A stretch of 64,000 bases of DNA from the NCBI RefSeq assembly GCF_001677475.2, contig NZ_CP015229.1. One strand, written 5' to 3'. The position numbers and the translations under genes are program-made. Positions 2,365-55,893 of this stretch are shown here, in pieces. Under the pieces are notes generated by a model. That model was not told the DNA's origin. It was given only the letters and a program-made list of their open reading frames with translations, and ran no database searches. This stretch comes from Escherichia coli. GTDB taxonomy: Bacteria > Pseudomonadota > Gammaproteobacteria > Enterobacterales > Enterobacteriaceae. Numbering within the stretch: position 1 is the stretch's first letter; each line of letters starts with the position of its first letter.

Positions 2365-3042
2365 ATGAAGTGGGACTGGATTTTCTTTGATGCCGATGAA
2401 ACGCTGTTTACCTTTGACTCATTCACCGGCCTGCAGCGGATGTTTCTTGACTACAGCGTCACCTTTACCGCTGAAGATTTTCAGGACTATCAGGCCGTTA
2501 ACAAGCCACTGTGGGTGGATTATCAAAACGGCGCGATCACTTCATTACAGCTTCAGCACGGGCGGTTTGAGAGCTGGGCCGAACGGCTGAACGTCGAGCC
2601 GGGTAAACTCAACGAAGCCTTTATTAATGCGATGGCGGAAATCTGTACGCCGCTGCCGGGCGCGGTTTCTCTGCTTAACGCCATTCGTGGCAACGCCAAA
2701 ATCGGCATCATCACCAACGGCTTTAGTGCCTTGCAACAGGTGCGTCTGGAACGCACGGGCCTGCGTGATTACTTCGATTTGCTGGTGATTTCCGAAGAAG
2801 TTGGCGTTGCCAAACCGAATAAGAAAATTTTCGATTATGCGCTGGAACAGGCGGGCAATCCTGACCGTTCACGCGTGCTGATGGTTGGCGACACTGCCGA
2901 GTCCGATATTCTCGGTGGCATCAACGCCGGGCTTGCGACCTGCTGGCTGAATGCGCACAATCGCGAGCAACCAGAAGGCATCGCGCCCACCTGGACCGTT
3001 TCTTCGTTGCACGAACTGGAGCAGCTCCTGTGTAAACACTGA
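2365..3042 (+). CDS. yjjG: HAD-family pyrimidine 5'-nucleotidase
   Basis: 225-aa ORF starting [15 protein letters not shown] (HAD DxD motif); K-12 synteny. Confidence 0.88.
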
Positions 3043-3132
3043 TTGCCTCCCCCCCGTTGATGGGTAAAATAGCCGCAATTTTTCGTTTTCAACAAGCGCG
3101 GCGCGATGCCGCTTACTCAAGAAGAAAGAATT

Positions 3133-3207
3133 ATGACGTTGTCTCCTTATTTGCAAGAGGTGGCGAAGCGCCGCACTTTTGCCATTATTTCTCACCCCAA
3201 TAATTAA
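3133..3207 (+). pseudogene. prfC: Displaced 5' end of prfC (first ~21 codons) left at attL, running into phage DNA to a stop
   Basis: ATG at 3133 encodes [22 protein letters not shown] then diverges (NN*) after the att core; the full prfC is at 54307. Confidence 0.8.
3184..3197. other. attL core (ATTATTTCTCACCC), left prophage junction
   Basis: Identical 14-bp sequence recurs at 54355..54368 inside the intact prfC 5' end; flanking ~20 bp match with one mismatch. Confidence 0.75.
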
Positions 3208-3361
3208 GCCTAAATTAAAGCTCTTTTACTTTTTCAAAGTCCTTTCAGTTAATTGATGTTTGGTTTTATAAGTCATTTAAATACAGTTAGTTATGTGGCT
3301 TCTTTAATTGAAAATTCTTTCATGTAACTTTAAATCGATCAGGTTGCTTTCATCAAAAATC

Positions 3362-3418
3362 TGTACATATGCTTGTACATAATGTACAAAGCAGCAGAGG
3401 TGTTTTGCGATTTGTACA
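3362..3418. promoter_or_regulatory. Cluster of four TGTACA-containing repeats (TTGTACATA / ATGTACAAA) between attL and int; candidate integrase arm-type sites
   Basis: ctgTACAtatgctTGTACATAATGTACAAAg ... tTGTACAag; the same 9-mers recur near attR (54172..54286). Confidence 0.4.
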
Positions 3419-3427
3419 AGGTGAGTA

Positions 3428-4663
3428 ATGGCGCTGTCTGATGCGTGGTTGCGTTCAGTCGTTGGAAAGGAACGTGATAAGGTTTTGGTTAAATCCGATC
3501 GTGATGGTCTGTCTGTCAGAGTATCACCGAAAGGTCGCGTAGTGTTCCAATATCGTTATCAATGGGCAGGGAAAGGTGAGCGCCTTGATATCGGAACTTA
3601 CCCGGCAACTGGATTAAAAGAGGCCAGAGAAGAAGTTATCCGTCTCCGTGGTGAACTCGAGTCAAACCGCAATCCACGATTAGTCAAGCAGGCTGAAAAA
3701 CGAAAAGCTACTGAAGCCATGACGGTAGAGTCTGTGATCCGTGCCTGGTATGAAGCATATTGTGTAAAAAATAAAAAAGGTTCTGAACAGATACTCCGCT
3801 CGTTTGAGCTGCACCTGTTCTCTAAAATCGGGAATATCCCTCACGATGCAGCTACATTGCATGATTGGTTAGAAGTCCTGGAGCCTCTTAGCACCAAGAC
3901 TCCAGCAATAGTAGACCGATTGCTAATTAACGCAAAGCAGGCTCATGTCTGGGCGTATAAGAGAAAGCTCATTGAAACTCGCCCACTGTCGGATATCACG
4001 GGTAAAGATATGGATATCCGTAAAGGTCAGAAAAAACGGTTTCTGACACATGATGAAATTAACATCCTTTATGCTGCGATCGATGGTTCTCGAATGGTTC
4101 CTAAATACCGAGCCTTCATTAAACTATTGCTGCATTTTGGTTGCCGTAGTTCAGAGCTAATTACTGCTAGGGTGGATGATTTTGATTTCATAAATAAGGT
4201 ATGGACTGTACCACCAGAACGACATAAGACTGGGGACATAACAGGCGAACCGCTAAAGCGGCCCATTATTGAACCGGTTGAAGAGCTTATAAAATACGTT
4301 ATCTCTATGAACAACGGTTCCGATATGCTTTTTACTAAGGAAGGAAGCAGGGAGCCAGTTGGTCGGACATCATTGCAGTCGCTGCCTTACAATTTAATGC
4401 AGTTCGCATGGCGACGTTTGGGGTATCAATTTCCTCATTGGTCTCTTCATGATTTGAGACGAACAGCACGAACAAACTTTTCTGATCTTACTGCTCCTCA
4501 TATTGCTGAAATAATGCTTGGTCATAAACTGCCAGGTGTATGGCAAGTTTATGATAAGAGCGATTATCTAGAAGAACAGCGTAAAGCTTACTGGGCATGG
4601 TGGGAGAGGGTTGAATCGATCGTTACTTGTACTGACTTAATCTCCAACGGACAGTTTGCGTAG
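3428..4663 (+). CDS. int: Tyrosine integrase, P4-type (N-terminal arm-binding domain plus catalytic domain)
   Basis: 411-aa ORF directly inside attL; C-terminal HDLRRTARTN and catalytic Y region typical of tyrosine recombinases; SD AAGGTGAG before ATG. Confidence 0.9.
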   Translation: MALSDAWLRSVVGKERDKVLVKSDRDGLSVRVSPKGRVVFQYRYQWAGKGERLDIGTYPATGLKEAREEVIRLRGELESNRNPRLVKQAEKRKATEAMTVESVIRAWYEAYCVKNKKGSEQILRSFELHLFSKIGNIPHDAATLHDWLEVLEPLSTKTPAIVDRLLINAKQAHVWAYKRKLIETRPLSDITGKDMDIRKGQKKRFLTHDEINILYAAIDGSRMVPKYRAFIKLLLHFGCRSSELITARVDDFDFINKVWTVPPERHKTGDITGEPLKRPIIEPVEELIKYVISMNNGSDMLFTKEGSREPVGRTSLQSLPYNLMQFAWRRLGYQFPHWSLHDLRRTARTNFSDLTAPHIAEIMLGHKLPGVWQVYDKSDYLEEQRKAYWAWWERVESIVTCTDLISNGQFA

Positions 4664-4821
4664 CCAGAGCGTAATCATATCTGCCAGTCCGCTGCGGATA
4701 CCTTGTGTACTGGGTTTTTAGCCAGACTACGTTAACCGGTAGCTTCAGTATTTGGGGTGTCGGCAGGAGTTTGATGGTTTATTGGGTTACTGTGGGACTA
4801 AGGATGTAGGGATGCCAATCG

Positions 4822-5955
4822 ATGAATTATGAAAAATATCATAGCACAAACAGAAGCAAGGGTTTGCGAACCTTCTGCTACTTAATTTATTATGTGCAGG
4901 TGATTTTTAATGTGATGAAGTGTTTTATGACTCGCGGAAACTTTGATTTTATAAACTCTAACGTGGTTTTCTCAGAAGCCGATAAGTCATTGTGGATTGA
5001 TCTCATTAACACCGATTGTATTTGGTATGATATGATAATTAATCCTCCTGATGATATAAGAACAAATAAGATAATAAAGAACTATCTCAGAATTATGGAA
5101 AAATATACGAGGGAAAGCTGTGAAAAGAGATTTATTTATTTCTTAGGTTCAAGAAAAAAAGTGAGGTTTTCAACCAAGAAACAGCCTAGGTATAACCCAT
5201 TCACAAAAAATATAGTATTCACTCTGTTGATTGGCAAAGAAGAGCGAAAGCTTCGGATAAAATATTCCTTTTGCACGTTTACGCAGAATGGGGTAGTGAA
5301 GGTAACTCCAAATGTTAGAGTAACTGAGAAGTTTCTCTACATTGAATATGAAAATGGCAATTTATGTGTGATGTCAGTTCATGATTTCGTAAACGGACAT
5401 TATATTGATTTAGGAATTCATACAGAAGTGCATTACGTAGGATATACACGTCATCCGCATCGGCGCCCTGTTGATTTTATTCACCGTGGCTTATCAAAGA
5501 TGCTGTATAGCGTTTCAAATGACGATAATGATTTTTTTGTTTGTTTTAGTATATTTAATCCAAGGATTATATCTCTGAATAATAAATGTAATGTGGTCTT
5601 TAATATTTCAAATTCTCTACTGGATGAAATTGATGTTGATAATGAGGGGAGAATTATTGAAAACTGCTTAATACGTTACTTTGATCCTAAGCTTCAAGAT
5701 GATGACAAGGAAAGTAAAAGGTCAGATTTAAATAAAATGTTTATGGACCTGGTGGAAAATAAAAAAATTAAAAAAATATACGTTAATTTTCAATATGAAA
5801 GGAATAATGAGTATTTCTGCTTTTACTCTAAAGTTGTTCCGCCGAAATTTCATCATTTCTTTGTGTTGGATTTTTCTGATGGCAAGATAAATATTGATAG
5901 AGACCAGGATATGATGACTCAGATGGCATTGTGCATGGGGTATTATAATTATTAA
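4822..5955 (+). CDS. Hypothetical protein, strongly AT-rich cargo gene between int and xis (function unknown)
   Basis: Single uninterrupted 377-codon ORF with N/K/I/F-rich composition, much lower GC than the flanks; alternative in-frame ATG at ~4915 has a better SD. No motif I can assign. Confidence 0.55.
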   Translation: MNYEKYHSTNRSKGLRTFCYLIYYVQVIFNVMKCFMTRGNFDFINSNVVFSEADKSLWIDLINTDCIWYDMIINPPDDIRTNKIIKNYLRIMEKYTRESCEKRFIYFLGSRKKVRFSTKKQPRYNPFTKNIVFTLLIGKEERKLRIKYSFCTFTQNGVVKVTPNVRVTEKFLYIEYENGNLCVMSVHDFVNGHYIDLGIHTEVHYVGYTRHPHRRPVDFIHRGLSKMLYSVSNDDNDFFVCFSIFNPRIISLNNKCNVVFNISNSLLDEIDVDNEGRIIENCLIRYFDPKLQDDDKESKRSDLNKMFMDLVENKKIKKIYVNFQYERNNEYFCFYSKVVPPKFHHFFVLDFSDGKINIDRDQDMMTQMALCMGYYNY

Positions 5956-6164: not shown

Positions 6165-6359
6165 TTACTCAATAACTCCAGCAAATCTGTATATTTTGCG
6201 TGATGCCCATTTATTTGGGCAGGATTTAATATCAGGATCTGGAAAATCTGGCCTGTATTTCTGGCCTGTCCTCCTGTTTACGCTGTTCCAGCGAAGCACC
6301 GTCGATATTGAAACGCCACAGAATTCGGCGACTTGTTTTGTTGTCATTAAGTTGCTCAT
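6165..6359 (-). CDS. xis: Excisionase / AlpA-family small DNA-binding protein
   Basis: 64-aa ORF MSNLMTTKQVAEFCGVSISTVLRW..., winged-helix pattern of the AlpA/Xis family; SD GGAGGGG upstream; last gene of the leftward operon. Confidence 0.6.
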   Translation of the reverse strand: MSNLMTTKQVAEFCGVSISTVLRWNSVNRRTGQKYRPDFPDPDIKSCPNKWASRKIYRFAGVIE

Positions 6360-47506: not shown

Positions 47507-50446
47507 ATGGCAGTAAAGATTTCAGGTGTACTGAAAGACGGCACAGGAAAACCGGTACAGAACTGCACAATCCAGCTGAAAGCAAAACGTAACAGCACCA
47601 CGGTGGTGGTGAACACGCTGGCCTCAGAAAATCCGGATGAAGCCGGGCGTTATAGCATGGACGTTGAGTACGGTCAGTACAGCGTTATTCTGTTGGTGGA
47701 AGGATGCCCGCCGTCACATGCCGGGACCATCACCGTGTATGAAGATTCCCGACCCGGTACGCTGAATGATTTTCTCGGTGCCATGACGGAGGATGATGCC
47801 CGTCCGGAGGCTCTGCGCCGTTTTGAACTGATGGTGGAAGAGGTGGCGCGTAACGCGTCCGCGGTGGCACAGAACACGGCAGCCGCGAAGAAGTCAGCCG
47901 GCGATGCCGGCACATCTGCCCGTGAGGCGGCAACCCATGCGACTGATGCTGCAGATTCAGCACGTGCAGCCAGCACGTCAGCCGGACAGGCCGCGACGTC
48001 AGCTCAGGAGGCTTTTTCCTGCGCAGGAACGGCATCAGCAAAAGCCTCTGAGGCATCAAAAAGTGCTGCCGCTGCAGAGTCCTCAAAAAGCGCGGCGGCC
48101 ACCAGTGCCGGTGCCGCGAAAACGTCTGAAACGAATGCTGCAGCGTCACAACAATCAGCAGCCACTTCTGCATCCACCGCGACCACGAAAGCGTCAGAAG
48201 CTGCCACCTCAGCCCGGGATGCGTCGGCTTCAAAAGAGGCGGCAAAATCATCAGAAACGAGCGCAGCCTCGAGCGCAAGTAGTTCCGCTTCCTCGGCAAC
48301 AGCGGCAGCAAATTCTGCGAAGGCGGCAAAAACGTCCGAGACGAACGCCAGGTCTTCTGAAACGGCAGCGGAACAGAGCGCCTCAGCTGCGGCAGGTTCA
48401 GAAACTACCGCTGCATCATCAGCCCGTGAGGCGTCAGTCAAAGCGGAGGAGGCTGCAGCCAGTGCCACTGCCGCCGGAAAATCGGCAGAAAGCGCCGCAT
48501 CATCCGCTTCAACAGCCACAACGAAGGCTGGCGAAGCCACTGAACAGGCCAGCGCAGCAGCGAGGTCAGCTTCCGCAGCGAAGACATCCGAAACGAACGC
48601 GAAAGCGTCGGAAACCAGCGCAGAATCCTCAAAAACGGCTGCCGCATCGTCCGCCAGTTCGGCGGCGTCATCGGCCTCATCGGCGTCTGCTTCAAAAGAT
48701 GAGGCGACCAGACAAGCGTCAGCAGCGAAGGGCAGCGCCACGACGGCATCCACGAAGGCAACAGAGGCTGCTGGCAGTGCGACGGCGGCAGCACAGAGCA
48801 AAAGTACGGCGGAATCCGCGGCAACGCGCGCCGAGACAGCGGCAAAACGGGCAGAGGATATTGCATCCGCCGTGGCGCTTGAGGATGCGAGCACGACGAA
48901 AAAGGGGATAGTACAGCTCAGCAGTGCGACCAACAGCACTTCCGAGTCACAGGCGGCAACGCCAAAGGCAGTAAAAGCAGCCAATGACAATGCTGAGAAA
49001 CGTCTGCAGAAAGATCAGAACGGTGCGGATATCCCTGGCAAAGACACCTTTACGAAAAATATTGGTGCCTGCCGTGCCTTCGGTGGGTCAGTAAGCACAA
49101 CAACAGGAAACTGGACGACTGCACAGTTTATCGAGTGGCTGGATTCTCAGGGAGCATTTAACCATCCATACTGGATGTGCAAGGGTTCCTGGTCTTATGG
49201 CAATAATAAAATCATTACTGATACTGGCTGCGGTAATATTCATCTCGCCGGAGCTGTCATTGAAGTAATGGGGATAAAGTCAGCGATGACGATCCGCATT
49301 ACCACTCCGACTACATCCAGCGGTGGCGGAACAACCAACGCCCAGTTTACCTATATTAATCACGGAACAGATTATTCACCTGGCTGGCGAAGGGACTATA
49401 ACTCCAGAAATAAGCCAACGGCATCAGAGATCGGGGCGCTACCGTCAGGTGGAACAGCAGTATCATCAGTTAATCTGGCTTCAAAAGGTCGGGTAGCCGC
49501 GCTGACAGACAATACGCAGGGGGCAGCAGGTCTTGAGTTATACGAGGTGTATAACAACGGATATCCAACAGCGTATGGAAATATCATTCACCTGAAAGGG
49601 ATGACAGCCGTTGGCGAAGGTGAGTTACTCATCGGCTGGAGTGGTACAAGCGGTGCTCATGCTCCGGCATTTATTCGTTCACGACGGGATACGACCGACG
49701 CAAACTGGTCGCCGTGGGCGCAGCTTTACACCTCGGCTCATCCTCCTGCAGAGTTTTATCCAGTCGGTGCACCAATCCCGTGGCCATCAGATACCGTTCC
49801 GTCTGGCTATGCCCTGATGCAGGGGCAGACTTTTGACAAATCTGCATACCCGAAACTTGCAGCGGCTTATCCGTCAGGCGTTATTCCTGATATGCGTGGC
49901 TGGACGATTAAGGGCAAGCCCGCCAGTGGTCGTGCCGTATTGTCTCAGGAACAGGACGGCATTAAATCGCACACCCACAGCGCCAGCGCATCCAGTACGG
50001 ATTTGGGGACGAAAACCACATCGTCGTTTGATTACGGCACTAAATCCACGAATAACACCGGTGCGCATACCCATAGTTTAAGTGGCAGCACGAATGCGGC
50101 TGGTAATCACAGCCATAGAGATGGCCGTCGATTTAACCCCAGTGTTTTTAAAGATACTTATCAATATGGTTATACAAGCTCAGGTCAAAATACCTGGGGG
50201 GTACAAGGCTCAGTAGGTATGTCTACGGGGTGGTTAGCTAATACCAGTACAGATGGTAATCATAGCCACTCACTGTCCGGTACAGCAGTATCTGCAGGTG
50301 CACACGCGCATACTGTCGGTATTGGTGCTCATACGCACTCCGTTGCGATAGGGTCACATGGACACACCATCACCGTTAACGCTGCTGGTAACGCGGAAAA
50401 CACCGTCAAAAACATCGCATTTAACTATATTGTGAGGCTTGCATGA
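47507..50446 (+). CDS. stf: Side tail fibre protein Stf (Ala/Ser-rich repeats; C-terminal HxH repeats)
   Basis: 979-aa ORF; long low-complexity central region; C-terminus [18 protein letters not shown]...[15 protein letters not shown] typical of lambda-type Stf. Confidence 0.85.
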
Positions 50447-51345
50447 TTACGCTCATTCTTTCTGCACCAGTAACAGAAATGGCTGAAGCATTTAAGCGGG
50501 TATTCGCAAATGCAGATAATGTGAATATTGTCGGAAAGCCATTTGAAACAATCAGGGAATTTGACTGCATGGTAAGTGCGGCAAACAGTTTCGGCCTGAT
50601 GGATGGCGGTGTTGATGCCGCCATTACCGCATTCTTCGGTACTCAGTTACAGTCCCGCGTTCAGAATCATATTCTTCGTGAATATCTCGGCGAGCAGCCT
50701 GTAGGTTCTGCATTTGTTATTGAAACGGGGCATAATCATCATCCCTGGCTGGTACATGCGCCAACAATGCGTGTTCCGCTGACAATTGACGGAACAGACG
50801 CTGTATATAACGCAACCTGGGCCGCTCTGCTTGCCATCTTTCAGCACAATAAACACGCAACGACAGACAGGAAAATAAAAACGGTGGTATTCCCTGCAAT
50901 GGGAGCCGGATGTGGTCAGGTGCCGTTTGAAAGTGTTGCCCGGCAGATGAAGCAGGCATGGGATAACTTTAATAAAAAAACAGAATCAATTAACTGGGAA
51001 TACGCACAATCCCGCCAGTCGGCAGTATTTGGCACATATGCATACTGTCCGGGTAATTCTGTTTGCCGTTATGCGGATACTAAATATATTGGATGCGGCG
51101 ATTATCGGACGTATTGCTCACGTTCCGGGCAGGTCTGTATTAACCCTGAACATCAGGCTGATGATGTACTGATACAACATCAGGCTAATAACCGGTTTCG
51201 CCCTGGTTCGCATATACACCGGATTAATCCAGAAAATCCCGTAGGTAATGTCATCTCTGGCGCACATAGCCACGGAAGTAGCATCGTTATTGGTGCTCAC
51301 ACCCATACGCTCAATAAACAATATTCTGTCTCTGATATTAAGTAG
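50443..51345 (+). CDS. Macro-domain (ADP-ribose binding/hydrolase-like) protein with tail-fibre-like His-repeat C-terminus, inserted between stf and tfa
   Basis: ATGA overlap with stf stop; macro motifs [18 protein letters not shown] and [14 protein letters not shown]; C-terminal [18 protein letters not shown] echoes the Stf C-terminus; stop 8 nt before tfa ATG. Confidence 0.6.
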
Positions 51346-51353
51346 AGGTGAAC

Positions 51354-51929
51354 ATGGATTTCAGAATGAGTGAACAACCACGGACCATAACAATTTATAA
51401 TCTGCTGGCCGGAACTAATGAATTTATTGGTGAAGGTGATGCATATATTCCGCCTCATACAGGTCTGCCAGCAAACAGTACCGATATTGCACCGCCAGAT
51501 ATTCCGGCTGGCTTTGTGGCTGTTTTCAACAGTGATGAGGCATCGTGGCATCTCGTTGAAGACCATCGGGGTAAAACCGTCTATGACGTGGCTTCCGGCG
51601 ACGCGTTATTTATTTCTGAACTTGGCCCATTACCGGAAAATGTCACTTGGTTATCCCCGGAAGGGGAGTTTCAGAAGTGGAACGGCACAGCCTGGGTGAA
51701 GGATACGGAAGCAGAAAAACTGTTCCGGATCCGGGAGGCGGAAGAAACAAAAAACAACCTGATGCAGGTAGCCAGTGAGCATATTGCGCCGCTTCAGGAT
51801 GCTGCAGATCTGGAAATTGCAACGGAGGAAGAAATCTCGTTGCTGGAAGCATGGAAAAAGTATCGGGTATTGCTGAACCGTGTTGATACGTCAACTGCAC
51901 AGGATATTGAATGGCCAGCACTGCCGTAG
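51354..51929 (+). CDS. tfa: Tail fibre assembly protein Tfa
   Basis: [41 protein letters not shown]... matches recalled lambda Tfa; SD GAGGTG upstream. Confidence 0.9.
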
Positions 51930-52026
51930 GGTAAAACATATAAATTCTATAATTAGATGTATCTTTCCATTTACGGCAAGGAAGGGGGCTTGGAAGACGT
52001 AAAGCATCTCACACCGAGATTATTTT

Positions 52027-52617
52027 TTATATGTCAGGTGTCTGAAGTTTTGCTTTGGCTCTTAAAATGGTTTGCCGCGAGGTTTTGAATTCCCGGGCAA
52101 TGGCACTTATACTTACACCTGACTTAATTCGTTCGAATACCACCTGTTTCTGTTCTTCATTTAACACAGGTGGTCGACCAAAACGTTTCCCTGCGCCCCG
52201 GGCTCTTACTATCCCGGAATGAGTGCGTTCAAGTAAAAGGTCTCGTTCAAATTCAGCGACTGCTGAAATTACTTGCATCATCATTTTTCCTGTTGGACTG
52301 GTCAGGTCAATGCCCCCCAATGCTAAGCAATGCACTCTGATACCTGTTTCGGTCAGTTGTTCCACTGTTTTCCTGATATCCATTGCATTACAACCAAGGC
52401 GATCCAGTTTTGTCACAATCAATTGATCACCACATTTCAGGCGAGCAAGCAACCGGTTAAAACCAGGACGCTCACTGGTTGCTGCTGAGCCGCTAATGTG
52501 TTCTTCGATTATTTGCTGAGGTTTGATTTTAAAACCTGCACTTTCGATTTCCCGGCGTTGATTTTCGGGGGTCTGATCCAGCGTTGATATCCGACAGTAA
52601 GCAAAAATTCGAGACAT
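52027..52617 (-). CDS. pin: Serine recombinase / DNA invertase (Pin/Hin/Gin family)
   Basis: 196-aa [18 protein letters not shown]... with catalytic Ser motif and C-terminal HTH; adjacent to tfa as in e14/Rac/Qin. Confidence 0.88.
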
Positions 52618-52996
52618 AGTGAGACTCTATACGAAATTGGTGTACATATCATAATGCATATCCAAAAATTATTTCGCTTATTATTGTACATATTTGTATG
52701 TATACGTTCGAAAATAAACGAATTCGGATGCAGTCCCGTAATTTTGGTGTAACCAAAAATCGATTTTTTGAAAAATGGCTTTAACTCGGTTTGTTTTTCG
52801 AACTCCGGGCGGACTCGAGGAAGACGAATAATAGTGTTGTATGTTATTTTAACCAGATTTTAAGTTGTTTGGTCGTGGAAAAGTGGAGCAAAATGTTGTT
52901 AAAGTGGAAAAATGGTAAAAAAAGTAGGTTGTTGCGGAATAACGTAGTTGTTGATATTTTTTTAATGCATTGAAAAATTATTTTTCAGGGGGGGTA

Positions 52997-53230
52997 TTAC
53001 ACTTTACCATTTAAATTTTGGTTGTCTTTAAGAACTGATATCGCTGTTTGTAATAATTCTTTGTTATCCAGCCATGACTTTTTCTTTATGTTTCCTTCAA
53101 TGTAATCAAGCAATGTTCTGGTATTGATAGGTCTTCCCTGTTTTGCTACTTCCACGACAGCATCTCCCAGGATAATTCTGACTTCAGGAAGCTGCGCAGG
53201 GAACCACTTTAGGGTGTCTTTTGATTTCAT
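52997..53230 (-). CDS. YdfK/YnaE-like cold-shock-induced prophage protein
   Basis: MKSKDTLKWFPAQLPEVRIILGDAVVEVAKQGRPINTRTLLDYIEGNIKK...; matches recalled YdfK; start trimmed to internal Met. Confidence 0.75.
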   Translation of the reverse strand: MKSKDTLKWFPAQLPEVRIILGDAVVEVAKQGRPINTRTLLDYIEGNIKKKSWLDNKELLQTAISVLKDNQNLNGKV

Positions 53231-53298
53231 GAAGATATTCCTTAAAATATTATTGGTTTTCATTGCAATATTGTATGTCTGATTCAGGATATGTTGAC

Positions 53299-53412
53299 TT
53301 ATACATCGGTTTTGTCCGGGTTATTGGATATGCCAATCCCTAATTTTATTAGAGCATGACCAAAAATGCTGAATATGATAAGTAGTGAAGTGATTATCAG
53401 TATGCTGTTCAT
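53299..53412 (-). CDS. Hypothetical 37-aa hydrophobic membrane peptide (type I toxin-like)
   Basis: Hand-translated [37 protein letters not shown]; SD GAGG 4 nt upstream; TTGTCA/TATATA promoter-like elements upstream. Confidence 0.3.
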
Positions 53413-53838
53413 ATAGCCTCGAATTAGTATGGTGTTATATATAATATAGTTGACAATTTTTATCCTGGGTGTTCTTAAAGTTCGTAGATGAACCCTGTAG
53501 TTTCAGGTATACAGGAATGCTTACAGATAGCGGCAAAAGTCAGGAGGTTAATGGCGCAAACTGAAGGGGTAGCTGCGAACTAACTTAGGTAGAGACTCTA
53601 CACGGATTCGGTTTAAAAGTATACATAGATAACAATTTTTATCTGAAGAAGAAAAATATTAAGGTGATATGGTCATATATACTTTAATGCGGAAGAATGA
53701 ATGTGATGAGAGTGCTGTATCTGAATGGTTGAAAAACCGCAGACACGTCGTATGCAAGAACGTGCTGCGGTTGGCTGGTGAACTTCCGATAGTGCGAGTA
53801 TTGAATGATTTCCAGCCGTTACCGATTTTACGTGTTAA

Positions 53839-54087
53839 TTAGTGAACAAACCACTCGTCAGCAGACTCCCAGGTATCTTTCAGAGTTTCCTGAACAAAAG
53901 TTTTAGCTGAATCTTTATCGGCGGTGCGCGTAACAGAAAGGCCATCGTTGCTGGTGGCTTTTACGATCACCTCTACATCGTCATAACGCTTACTGATGCG
54001 TCGAGTTAATTCTTCCTTTAACGCATCCACAGCACCGTTTGGCATTTTAGTCATTTTCTCTTTGGCTATGCAGATCTCAATACGCAT
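53839..54087 (-). CDS. dinI: DinI-family damage-inducible protein
   Basis: 82-aa [13 protein letters not shown]...[11 protein letters not shown] matching the DinI family; two LexA boxes upstream. Confidence 0.85.
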
Positions 54088-54102
54088 AAAAATCCCTCTA
54101 CA

Positions 54103-54146
54103 CTGTGTTTGTATACAGTGTTATTTTTAACTGTATGAATAAACAG
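54103..54146. promoter_or_regulatory. Two tandem LexA boxes (CTGT-N8-ACAG) in the dinI-like promoter
   Basis: CACTGTGTTTGTATACAGTG at 54101..54120 and AACTGTATGAATAAACAGTG at 54129..54148. Confidence 0.75.
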
Positions 54147-54171
54147 TGTCAATAGAACAAAGATTGCTGCA

Positions 54172-54286
54172 TGTACAAATGTTCTTTGGCTACAAATACA
54201 CCTACTGATCATGTTCTGCTATGCTCTGATACCTCCAAAATGTACAATCAGCGGCATGAATTTTTCTTTGTACATATGATTGTACA
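54172..54286. promoter_or_regulatory. TGTACA-containing repeats near attR (ATGTACAAA, TTGTACATA x2); candidate arm-type sites overlapping the phage-borne prfC promoter region
   Basis: Same 9-mers as at 3362..3418 near attL. Confidence 0.4.
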
Positions 54287-54306
54287 TAATCAAAGAGACA
54301 ACAATT

Positions 54307-55893
54307 ATGACAAGCCTTTTGGCCGCAGAGGTAGCGAAAAGAAGAACCTTTGCAATTATTTCTCACCCGGACGCCGGTAAAACAACCATCACCGAGAAGG
54401 TGCTGCTGTTCGGACAGGCCATTCAGACCGCCGGTACAGTAAAAGGCCGTGGCTCTAACCAGCACGCTAAGTCGGACTGGATGGAGATGGAAAAGCAGCG
54501 TGGGATCTCCATTACCACGTCTGTGATGCAGTTTCCGTATCACGACTGCCTGGTTAACCTGCTCGACACCCCGGGGCACGAAGACTTCTCGGAAGATACC
54601 TATCGTACTCTGACGGCGGTGGACTGCTGCCTGATGGTTATCGACGCTGCAAAAGGTGTTGAAGATCGTACCCGCAAGCTGATGGAAGTTACCCGTCTGC
54701 GCGACACGCCGATCCTCACCTTTATGAACAAACTTGACCGTGATATCCGCGACCCGATGGAGCTGCTCGATGAAGTTGAGAACGAGCTGAAAATCGGCTG
54801 TGCACCGATCACCTGGCCGATTGGCTGCGGCAAGCTGTTTAAAGGCGTTTACCACCTTTATAAAGATGAAACCTATCTTTATCAGAGCGGTAAAGGCCAC
54901 ACCATTCAGGAAGTCCGCATTGTTAAAGGGCTGAATAACCCGGATCTCGATGCTGCGGTTGGTGAAGATCTGGCGCAGCAGCTGCGTGACGAACTGGAAC
55001 TGGTGAAAGGCGCGTCTAACGAGTTCGACAAAGAGCTGTTCCTTGCGGGCGAAATCACTCCGGTATTCTTCGGTACTGCGCTGGGTAACTTCGGCGTTGA
55101 TCATATGCTGGATGGCCTGGTGGAGTGGGCCCCTGCGCCGATGCCGCGTCAGACTGATACCCGTACCGTAGAGGCGAGCGAAGACAAATTTACCGGCTTC
55201 GTATTTAAAATTCAGGCCAACATGGACCCGAAACACCGCGACCGCGTGGCGTTTATGCGTGTGGTGTCCGGTAAATATGAAAAAGGCATGAAGCTGCGCC
55301 AGGTGCGTACTGCGAAAGATGTGGTGATCTCCGACGCGCTGACCTTTATGGCGGGTGACCGTTCGCACGTTGAAGAAGCGTATCCTGGCGATATCCTCGG
55401 CCTGCACAACCACGGCACCATTCAGATCGGCGACACCTTTACCCAGGGTGAGATGATGAAGTTCACCGGTATTCCGAACTTCGCGCCAGAACTGTTCCGT
55501 CGTATCCGCCTGAAAGATCCGCTGAAGCAAAAACAGCTGCTTAAAGGGCTGGTACAGCTTTCCGAAGAGGGCGCGGTGCAGGTGTTCCGTCCGATCTCCA
55601 ACAACGATCTGATCGTTGGTGCGGTTGGTGTGCTGCAGTTTGATGTGGTGGTAGCGCGTCTGAAGAGCGAATACAACGTTGAAGCAGTGTATGAGTCAGT
55701 CAACGTTGCCACTGCCCGCTGGGTAGAATGTGCGGACGCGAAGAAATTCGAAGAGTTCAAGCGTAAGAACGAAAGCCAACTGGCGCTTGATGGCGGCGAT
55801 AACCTCGCTTACATCGCTACCAGCATGGTCAATCTGCGCCTGGCGCAGGAACGTTATCCGGACGTTCAGTTCCACCAGACCCGCGAGCATTAA
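54307..55893 (+). CDS. prfC: Peptide chain release factor 3 (RF3), reconstituted with a phage-derived 5' end
   Basis: [27 protein letters not shown]... with GTPase motifs; first ~16 codons come from the prophage side of attR. Confidence 0.92.
54355..54368. other. attR core (ATTATTTCTCACCC) within prfC codons 17-21
   Basis: Exact copy of the 14-bp sequence at 3184..3197. Confidence 0.75.

Follow-up and report, generated by a model that had tools for sequence, protein, structure and literature searches.

The eight TGTACA elements that flank the attachment sites of a ~51-kb lambdoid prophage in Escherichia coli are, as predicted from their sequence and distribution, probably arm-type binding sites of the prophage integrase. 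The window, i.e., the whole stretch of 64,000 nucleotides that was analyzed, contains this prophage integrated at the 5' end of E. coli prfC, with rsmC, holD, rimI and yjjG in the left flank and prfC and osmY in the right flank. The attL core ATTATTTCTCACCC (3184..3197) lies within the prfC codons for IISHP and an identical 14-mer at 54355..54368 represents the attR core; the free phages 2H10 and cdtI have one copy, at the junction of both arms, and the same 14 bp are annotated as insertion duplication in the Stx2c phage LC727876. At attL, a native prfC remnant of 24 codons (3133..3207, plus strand) reads toward int and ends at a stop 8 bp beyond the core, and the host prfC promoter still precedes it. 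At attR, the first 16 codons of the hybrid prfC (54307..55893, plus strand), up to the core, are of phage origin and the remainder is of host origin, the phage-encoded N-terminal residues replacing the native ones behind a new ATG at 54307. Both ends of the prophage are shared with known phages: across the compared regions 3199-4700 (int-proximal end) and 53800-54345 (attR arm) PhiR63_1 is 100% identical, and phages 2H10, cdtI and Stx1a/Stx2c are 94-99% identical, with the cdtI phage attP being ~95-99% identical to that of the window prophage. Moreover, the attL-int segment was found in 698 of 5,426 complete E. coli genomes (~13%).

The two clusters consist of four copies each and lie exactly where the sequence-only reading had placed them (3362..3418 and 54172..54286), starting 165 bp inside attL and extending from 183 to 69 bp before attR, as counted from the core positions. 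On the int-proximal P' arm, site 1 (cTGTACAtat, 3362..3367, plus strand) and site 2 (tTGTACAtaa, 3374..3379, plus strand) form a 12-bp tandem pair, the first member of which is invariant in seven prfC-type elements. Site 3 (3383..3388, minus strand) is inverted and builds the palindrome TTGTACATAATGTACAA with site 2, a perfect 17-bp palindrome at 3373-3389, while site 4 (tTGTACAagg, 3413..3418), of ambiguous orientation, abuts the int Shine-Dalgarno sequence. On the P arm, the distal site ATGTACAAA (54172..54177, minus strand), which is also present in 2H10, cdtI and Stx2c phages, and the site ATGTACAAT (54241..54246, minus strand) are followed by a second tandem pair on the plus strand, its members located at 54269..54274 and 54281..54286, the second of which ends 21 bp ahead of the phage-borne prfC ATG. 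As had been claimed, 9-mers are shared by both sides: TTGTACATA occurs at 3373, 54268 and 54280, and ATGTACAAA, a near reverse complement of TTGTACATA, at 3382 and 54171. Both clusters also have a block of 22 nt, TGTACATATGnTTGTACATAAT, in common. When the sites were oriented, TGTACAT was found in seven of the eight and TTGTACAT in six of the eight, in either direction, and six of the seven occurrences of this oriented 8-mer in the window fall inside the two clusters.

The total number of TGTACA copies in the 64-kb window is unremarkable (16 observed as compared to 12 expected), but their local density is not: eight copies fall within 449 bp of arm DNA, whereas only four were found in the other 9,527 bp with a GC content of at most 36%, which makes the arm DNA ~40-fold richer in the hexamer than the other AT-rich DNA of the window. 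The sequence-only reading had named a similar density in unrelated AT-rich regions as evidence against its proposal, and no such density was seen. Chance occurrence was assessed by first-order Markov simulations based on each arm's own sequence with the repeats kept in (20,000 runs), which yielded expectations of 0.09 and 0.27 copies for the two arms. A count of at least four was obtained in none and one of these runs, respectively, and the corresponding Poisson P values were 2.5e-6 and 1.9e-4.

Comparison with the attP of related phages, a check proposed along with the initial claim, is in line with arm-type sites. In the free phages 2H10 and cdtI, both clusters are located on one uninterrupted attP around the single core, with sites at -190, -121, -93 and -81 (P arm) and at +171, +183, +192 and +222 (P' arm) from the core centre, so that the eight sites span ~410 bp. 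The core itself is devoid of TGTACA; hence, the repeated motif is unrelated to the core and is present in four copies on each arm. Each arm carries one tandem pair spaced 12 bp start to start, and both pairs have the same orientation and lie 264 bp apart in attP. P arms were compared for the E. coli phages plus four distant attPs of viral or phage origin, and in these four, which are intact, a second pair was likewise present at a distance of 262 bp (loci L126 and L185), 233 bp (the Moraxella-type locus L149) or 234 bp (Salmonella phage SPN3UB).

The int gene (3428..4663, plus strand) encodes a heterobivalent tyrosine integrase of 411 aa belonging to the IntSXT/P4-like subgroup. Pfam recognized the domains Arm-DNA-bind_3 (PF13356, residues 3-90, 2e-16), Phage_int_M (PF22022) and Phage_integrase (PF00589). 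The N-terminal domain matched the PDB entries 3jtz and 3rmp at 1.9e-7 and 3ju0 at 3.9e-5 in sequence, and Foldseek superposed the AF2 model of Int (pLDDT 90) on 3jtz/3rmp with an rmsd of 1.3-1.4 Å; the TM-scores of the arm-binding domain against 3jtz, 3rmp and 3ju0 were 0.79-0.88 on target with 26-36% identity. Int possesses the separate N-terminal arm-binding domain that arm-type sites require. The three structures stem from the P4-like integrases of HPI (Yersinia) and HAI7, which share this domain fold with the window Int although they belong to different elements that target tRNA genes, and the title of 3rmp describes an attP-substrate complex of a P4-like integrase. The cdtI phage integrase was reported to cluster with SXT Int in the prfC-targeting cluster of the DUF4102-bearing IntSXT subgroup (PMC8138268), and the window Int belongs to this SXT/cdtI cluster by its prfC site, its domains and its relatives. 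In Salmonella, Pantoea, Xenorhabdus, Serratia, Vibrio and Erwinia, relatives with 51-84% identity occupy the same prfC codons. The integrases of the SXT/R391 ICE and of cdtI likewise target the prfC 5' end, supply a replacement 5' end and have the same domain architecture; SXT, however, is conjugative, and its int depends on SetCD (PMC4344509).

Conservation of the sites was analyzed among close as well as distant relatives of the integrase. The elements with Int homologues of 84-61% identity from Salmonella, Pantoea, Xenorhabdus and Serratia all use the same prfC codons as insertion point, and in these four genera hardly any similarity is left in the arm DNA from core to int, but the TGTACA sites are retained. 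In an alignment of seven sequences, drawn from E. coli phages, Salmonella, Pantoea and Trabulsiella, all 24 hexamer positions were invariant, as compared to 74 of 206 other positions (Fisher 2e-10). A wider sample comprised 80 loci, one genome per species, chosen by integrase homology alone (37-98% identity) and spanning enterobacteria, Pseudomonas, Vibrio-like bacteria, Shewanella, Acinetobacter and others; the counts from this sample concern the int-proximal side, the attR ends of the relatives outside E. coli being located 40-100 kb from int. Exact TGTACA-N6-TGTACA was present within 150 bp upstream of int in 38 of the 80 loci and nowhere else in the same loci (270 kb). With the relaxed pattern NGTMCA-N6-NGTMCA (M = A or C) the count rose to 69 of 80, with a single match elsewhere in the 270 kb. 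The density of TGTACA in these loci was 12.1/kb upstream of int and 0.09/kb elsewhere, and one site 7-30 bp ahead of the int start codon recurred in many relatives. The pair always accompanied int in relatives integrated at other genes. A scan of viral contigs by Int alignment returned only near-identical E. coli prophages, mostly ending at int, and was replaced by a motif scan; in this reverse search, 54 of 120 pair matches had an Int homologue (25-100% identity) tens of bp away.

The hexamer was found to vary by clade, with CGTACA, AGTACA or GGTACA in some clades, GGTGTAA in two MAGs, and TGTCCA in a clade with SPN3UB, Kluyvera, Edwardsiella and Citrobacter among its members. The sites are thus conserved where the arm DNA diverges and change with the integrase lineage. 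The 51 integrases of the TGTACA group and the nine of the TGTCCA group are cleanly separated by three residues of the Int N-domain (W7Y, S29W and Q41F), and S29 and Q41 lie on adjacent beta-strands of the AF2 model. In the integrases of lambda and Tn916, the N-domain beta-sheet is the surface that reads the major groove, and by analogy the sheet with S29 and Q41 would do so in the window Int. A link of S29, Q41 and W7 to hexamer specificity is suggested by this correlation, which remains suggestive only because the nine sequences of the TGTCCA group are probably one clade and the comparison is phylogenetically confounded. The integrases of the TGTCCA sister clade, which are ~45% identical, insert in the lepA 5' end (MKNIRNFSIIAHIDH), as seen in SPN3UB (L005, 1240-1300) and in loci L272, L279, L274, L275, L278 and L287. 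In lepA, the insertion point is the paralogous counterpart of the prfC target and directly precedes the GTPase P-loop, and this clade also brings a replacement 5' end, with the tandem pair located ~40-50 bp upstream of that end.

A second repeat family (3242..3355, plus strand) is located between the core and the TGTACA sites and is confined to the P' arm. It comprises three copies of CTTTCA, at 3242, 3317 and 3347, as compared to 0.08 expected, and the trinucleotide TCA at -42, -23, -12 and -9 from site 1 in the window, in blocks that are conserved in the seven-sequence alignment. Among 42 non-redundant relatives, TCA peaks exactly at -42, -32, -22 and -12 from the first hexamer, and its inter-site distances in the relatives (L216-L295) peak at 10, 20 and 30 bp. 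These 10-bp-phased repeats are candidate sites for the recombination directionality factor (RDF) or for IHF. IHF-like matches at 3243-3255 and 3267-3279 carry one mismatch each, none being perfect, and were not counted as evidence. The xis gene (6165..6359, minus strand) encodes the putative excisionase or RDF, with a match to phrog_1553 excisionase (1e-34) and a weak HTH_17/MerR match, and its position on the strand opposite int means that the two genes are transcribed separately. The motif FPxPD...NKW is common to the window Xis and that of SPN3UB, which likely represent one family; since this one RDF type accompanies both TGTACA and TGTCCA, RDF identity was dropped as a means to discriminate between Int and Xis as the protein that binds the hexamer.

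The main alternative is that the hexamers are sites of Xis/RDF (6165-6359) or of another small phage accessory protein, with the Int sites lying elsewhere, e.g., in the TCA/CTTTCA repeats. It is the main one because an RDF homologue accompanies most relatives, and for the same reason co-occurrence alone does not separate Int from Xis. RDF sites do occur on the int-proximal arm in KplE1 (PMC2951348), and the palindrome at 3373-3389 would suit a dimeric helix-turn-helix protein; indeed, in its shape the 17-bp palindrome of sites 2 and 3 is closer to dimeric helix-turn-helix operators than to arm-type sites and counts against the latter, as does the distance of the P'-arm sites from the core (+171 to +222), which is further out than in lambda. 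However, the hexamer pair is present on both arms in the same orientation while the second repeat family is found on the P' arm only, and this different repeat beside the pair is the more natural RDF candidate. RDF sites known so far lie on one arm only, as tandem repeats in close phase. Moreover, eight sites over 400 bp suit bridging better than bending by an RDF, and the hexamer switch correlates with residues of the Int N-domain beta-sheet. Taken together, we regard binding by Xis as unlikely, and integrase arm sites as the preferred explanation.

A purely transcriptional role, in which promoter modules, or operators bound by a phage or host regulator, were duplicated before int and before the phage-borne prfC and take no part in recombination, appears slightly less likely still. 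Each tandem pair does lie 17-66 bp upstream of an ATG, TGTACA agrees with TTGACA at four of six positions, CATAAT and TACAAT inside the sites resemble -10 boxes, and the promoter of the hybrid prfC must be located in this phage DNA. Yet no spacing of these elements yields a consensus promoter on the plus strand, and the pair tracks int in relatives that are integrated at other genes. A CI-type operator was rejected on the grounds that TGTACA is absent from the immunity and early regions of the prophage, the other copies in the window being eight scattered ones. A site for a host factor was rejected as well because the hexamer differs, TGTACA or TGTCCA, between elements residing in the same enterobacterial genera. 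That an AT-rich palindrome would cluster by chance in AT-rich intergenic DNA is compatible with the ordinary window-wide count, but local P values of ~1e-6 and 1e-4, cross-genus invariance and recurrence in 69 of 80 relatives make it highly improbable. Arm-type integrase sites, as initially proposed, are thus supported by the local enrichment, the attP of free phages, the Int domain, the invariance of the hexamers and their recurrence in the 80 relatives.

After integration, the P' sites are located 10-66 bp upstream of the int start codon (ATG 3428) and the P sites 17-135 bp upstream of the phage-supplied prfC ATG (54307), the P-arm pair at 54269/54281 being 17-38 bp upstream of the latter. 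The sequence-only reading had the attR cluster overlap the region that must also promote prfC; its position fits this view, but no promoter was located, since the scan revealed no consensus sigma-70 promoter on the plus strand upstream of the phage-borne prfC start in the attR arm. Nor was one found on this strand from 3197, where the core ends, to the int start at 3428, the sole plus-strand promoter match in 3000-3600 being located at 3043-3070, upstream of the prfC remnant. As no terminator-like site was found in 3000-3600, and thus none before int, read-through from the host prfC promoter into int is possible in the lysogen. Int bound at the P' set would probably also damp transcription of its own gene, and occupancy of the P set could influence prfC expression; both autoregulation and the effect on the hybrid prfC are inferred, because no promoter could be mapped in either arm. 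A precedent is KplE1 (CPS-53) with IntS and TorI, in which int is oriented away from attL, the P' and RDF sites located between core and int overlap the int promoter, and both Int and RDF act as repressors of int (PMC2951348). Similarly, int of the window prophage adjoins attL and is transcribed away from the core, with the arm sites located between the core (3184-3197) and ATG 3428, and, as in KplE1 and the related HK620/Sf6 modules, its RDF gene is transcriptionally uncoupled from int. The window prophage differs from KplE1 in that its target is a protein gene (the prfC 5' end) rather than the 3' end of a tRNA gene, in the sequence of the sites, and in that autoregulation of its int is deduced from the arrangement, no promoter having been mapped.

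Following this, we propose that the Int N-domain (residues ~1-90) docks on the TGTACA sites, with the C-terminal domains engaged at the 14-bp core in prfC, and that DNA-bending proteins between arms and core would give rise to a bridged intasome, which would carry out integration and, with Xis, excision. The key docking unit would be the direct hexamer pair TGTACA-N6-TGTACAtaa, present once per arm. Short non-core repeats on both attP arms are likewise known from lambda Int (P1, P2 and P'1-P'3) and other heterobivalent integrases, and the proposed intasome resembles that of lambda in that a separate N-terminal domain would read the sites and bending proteins together with excisionase would assist bridging to the core. 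In contrast to lambda, the N-domain of the window Int belongs to Arm-DNA-bind_3/DUF4102, i.e., to another Pfam family than the lambda type; the attP is longer (~410 bp), with four sites per arm and a 12-bp tandem pair as conserved unit; and int is read from the region upstream of it, in the direction away from the core, whereas that of lambda is transcribed from pL/pI.

Some further features of the prophage were observed. Between int and xis, an AT-rich ORF of 377 aa (4822-5955) matched phrog_7779, annotated as unknown function, and had no match in Pfam or PADLOC; it looks like inserted cargo because xis abuts or overlaps the int 3' end in the relatives from other genera. At the attR end, a DinI-like gene (53839-54148, minus strand; 82 aa, PF06183, 1e-19) is preceded by two LexA-box-like palindromes (CTGT-N8-ACAG in 54101-54120 and 54129-54148) and by a TTGACA/AAAAAT promoter-like site, and it looks like SOS-controlled cargo diverging from the P arm. 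Two additional TGTACAT copies, gTGTACAtat at 52641 and tTGTACAtat at 52685, lie 44 bp apart just upstream of a Hin/Pin-type invertase gene (52027-52617, minus strand); judged by sequence, they could be orphan Int sites or chance matches. In the region 47507-51929, a long tail-fibre gene encoding 979 aa, part of which is an Ala/Ser-rich repeat region, precedes alternative tail-fibre/assembly ORFs and the invertase. The block may be a host-range switching module; no crossover sites of such a module were detected, and a search of 50000-53300 found no inverted repeats bounding an invertible segment.

Arm-type sites, P4-like arm-binding domains, prfC targeting by SXT/cdtI elements and self-regulated int genes are all established already, and only the family-wide pair signature and the candidate specificity switch are mildly novel. 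The literature searched contained no description of TGTACA sites, of the 12-bp pair signature or of SXT/cdtI arm sites, the matches for TGTACA arm sites being Gateway att primers or unrelated papers, although an earlier description is possible. We tentatively put forward a broader reading, which we hold to be possible but somewhat short of probable, namely that the TGTACA clusters are an instance of a family-wide arm-site code of SXT/cdtI-type (DUF4102) integrases. Under such a code, each arm would carry a 12-bp-spaced NGTMCA-N6-NGTMCA, the two pairs would lie ~233-264 bp apart across the core, and one or two sites would abut the int start. The arrangement would have been kept from Acinetobacter and Moraxella to Vibrio and enterobacteria, across target genes, with A or C at hexamer position 4 set by S29/Q41 and W7 and with separate 10-bp-phased sites serving the excisionase.

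The present analysis defines a probable functional attP of ~410 bp, reaching well beyond the 14-bp core, for a prophage family that includes cdt- and stx-converting phages, which may be of use for integration vectors, for predicting the excision competence of Stx/Cdt prophages at prfC and for setting prophage boundaries. The 12-bp pair offers a simple signature for the int-proximal arm of SXT/cdtI-type elements, and TGTACA versus TGTCCA together with S29W/Q41F represents a small candidate switch of protein-DNA specificity. If the arm-site code holds true, arm sites and element ends would be predictable from sequence for hundreds of prophages and ICEs. Furthermore, the location of the putative integrase sites upstream of the phage-restored prfC raises the modest possibility that the prophage modulates expression of release factor 3; under the same code, Int on the P-arm pair could link expression of the restored host GTPase gene, i.e., of prfC in the case of the window prophage and of lepA in the sister clade, to the state of recombination.
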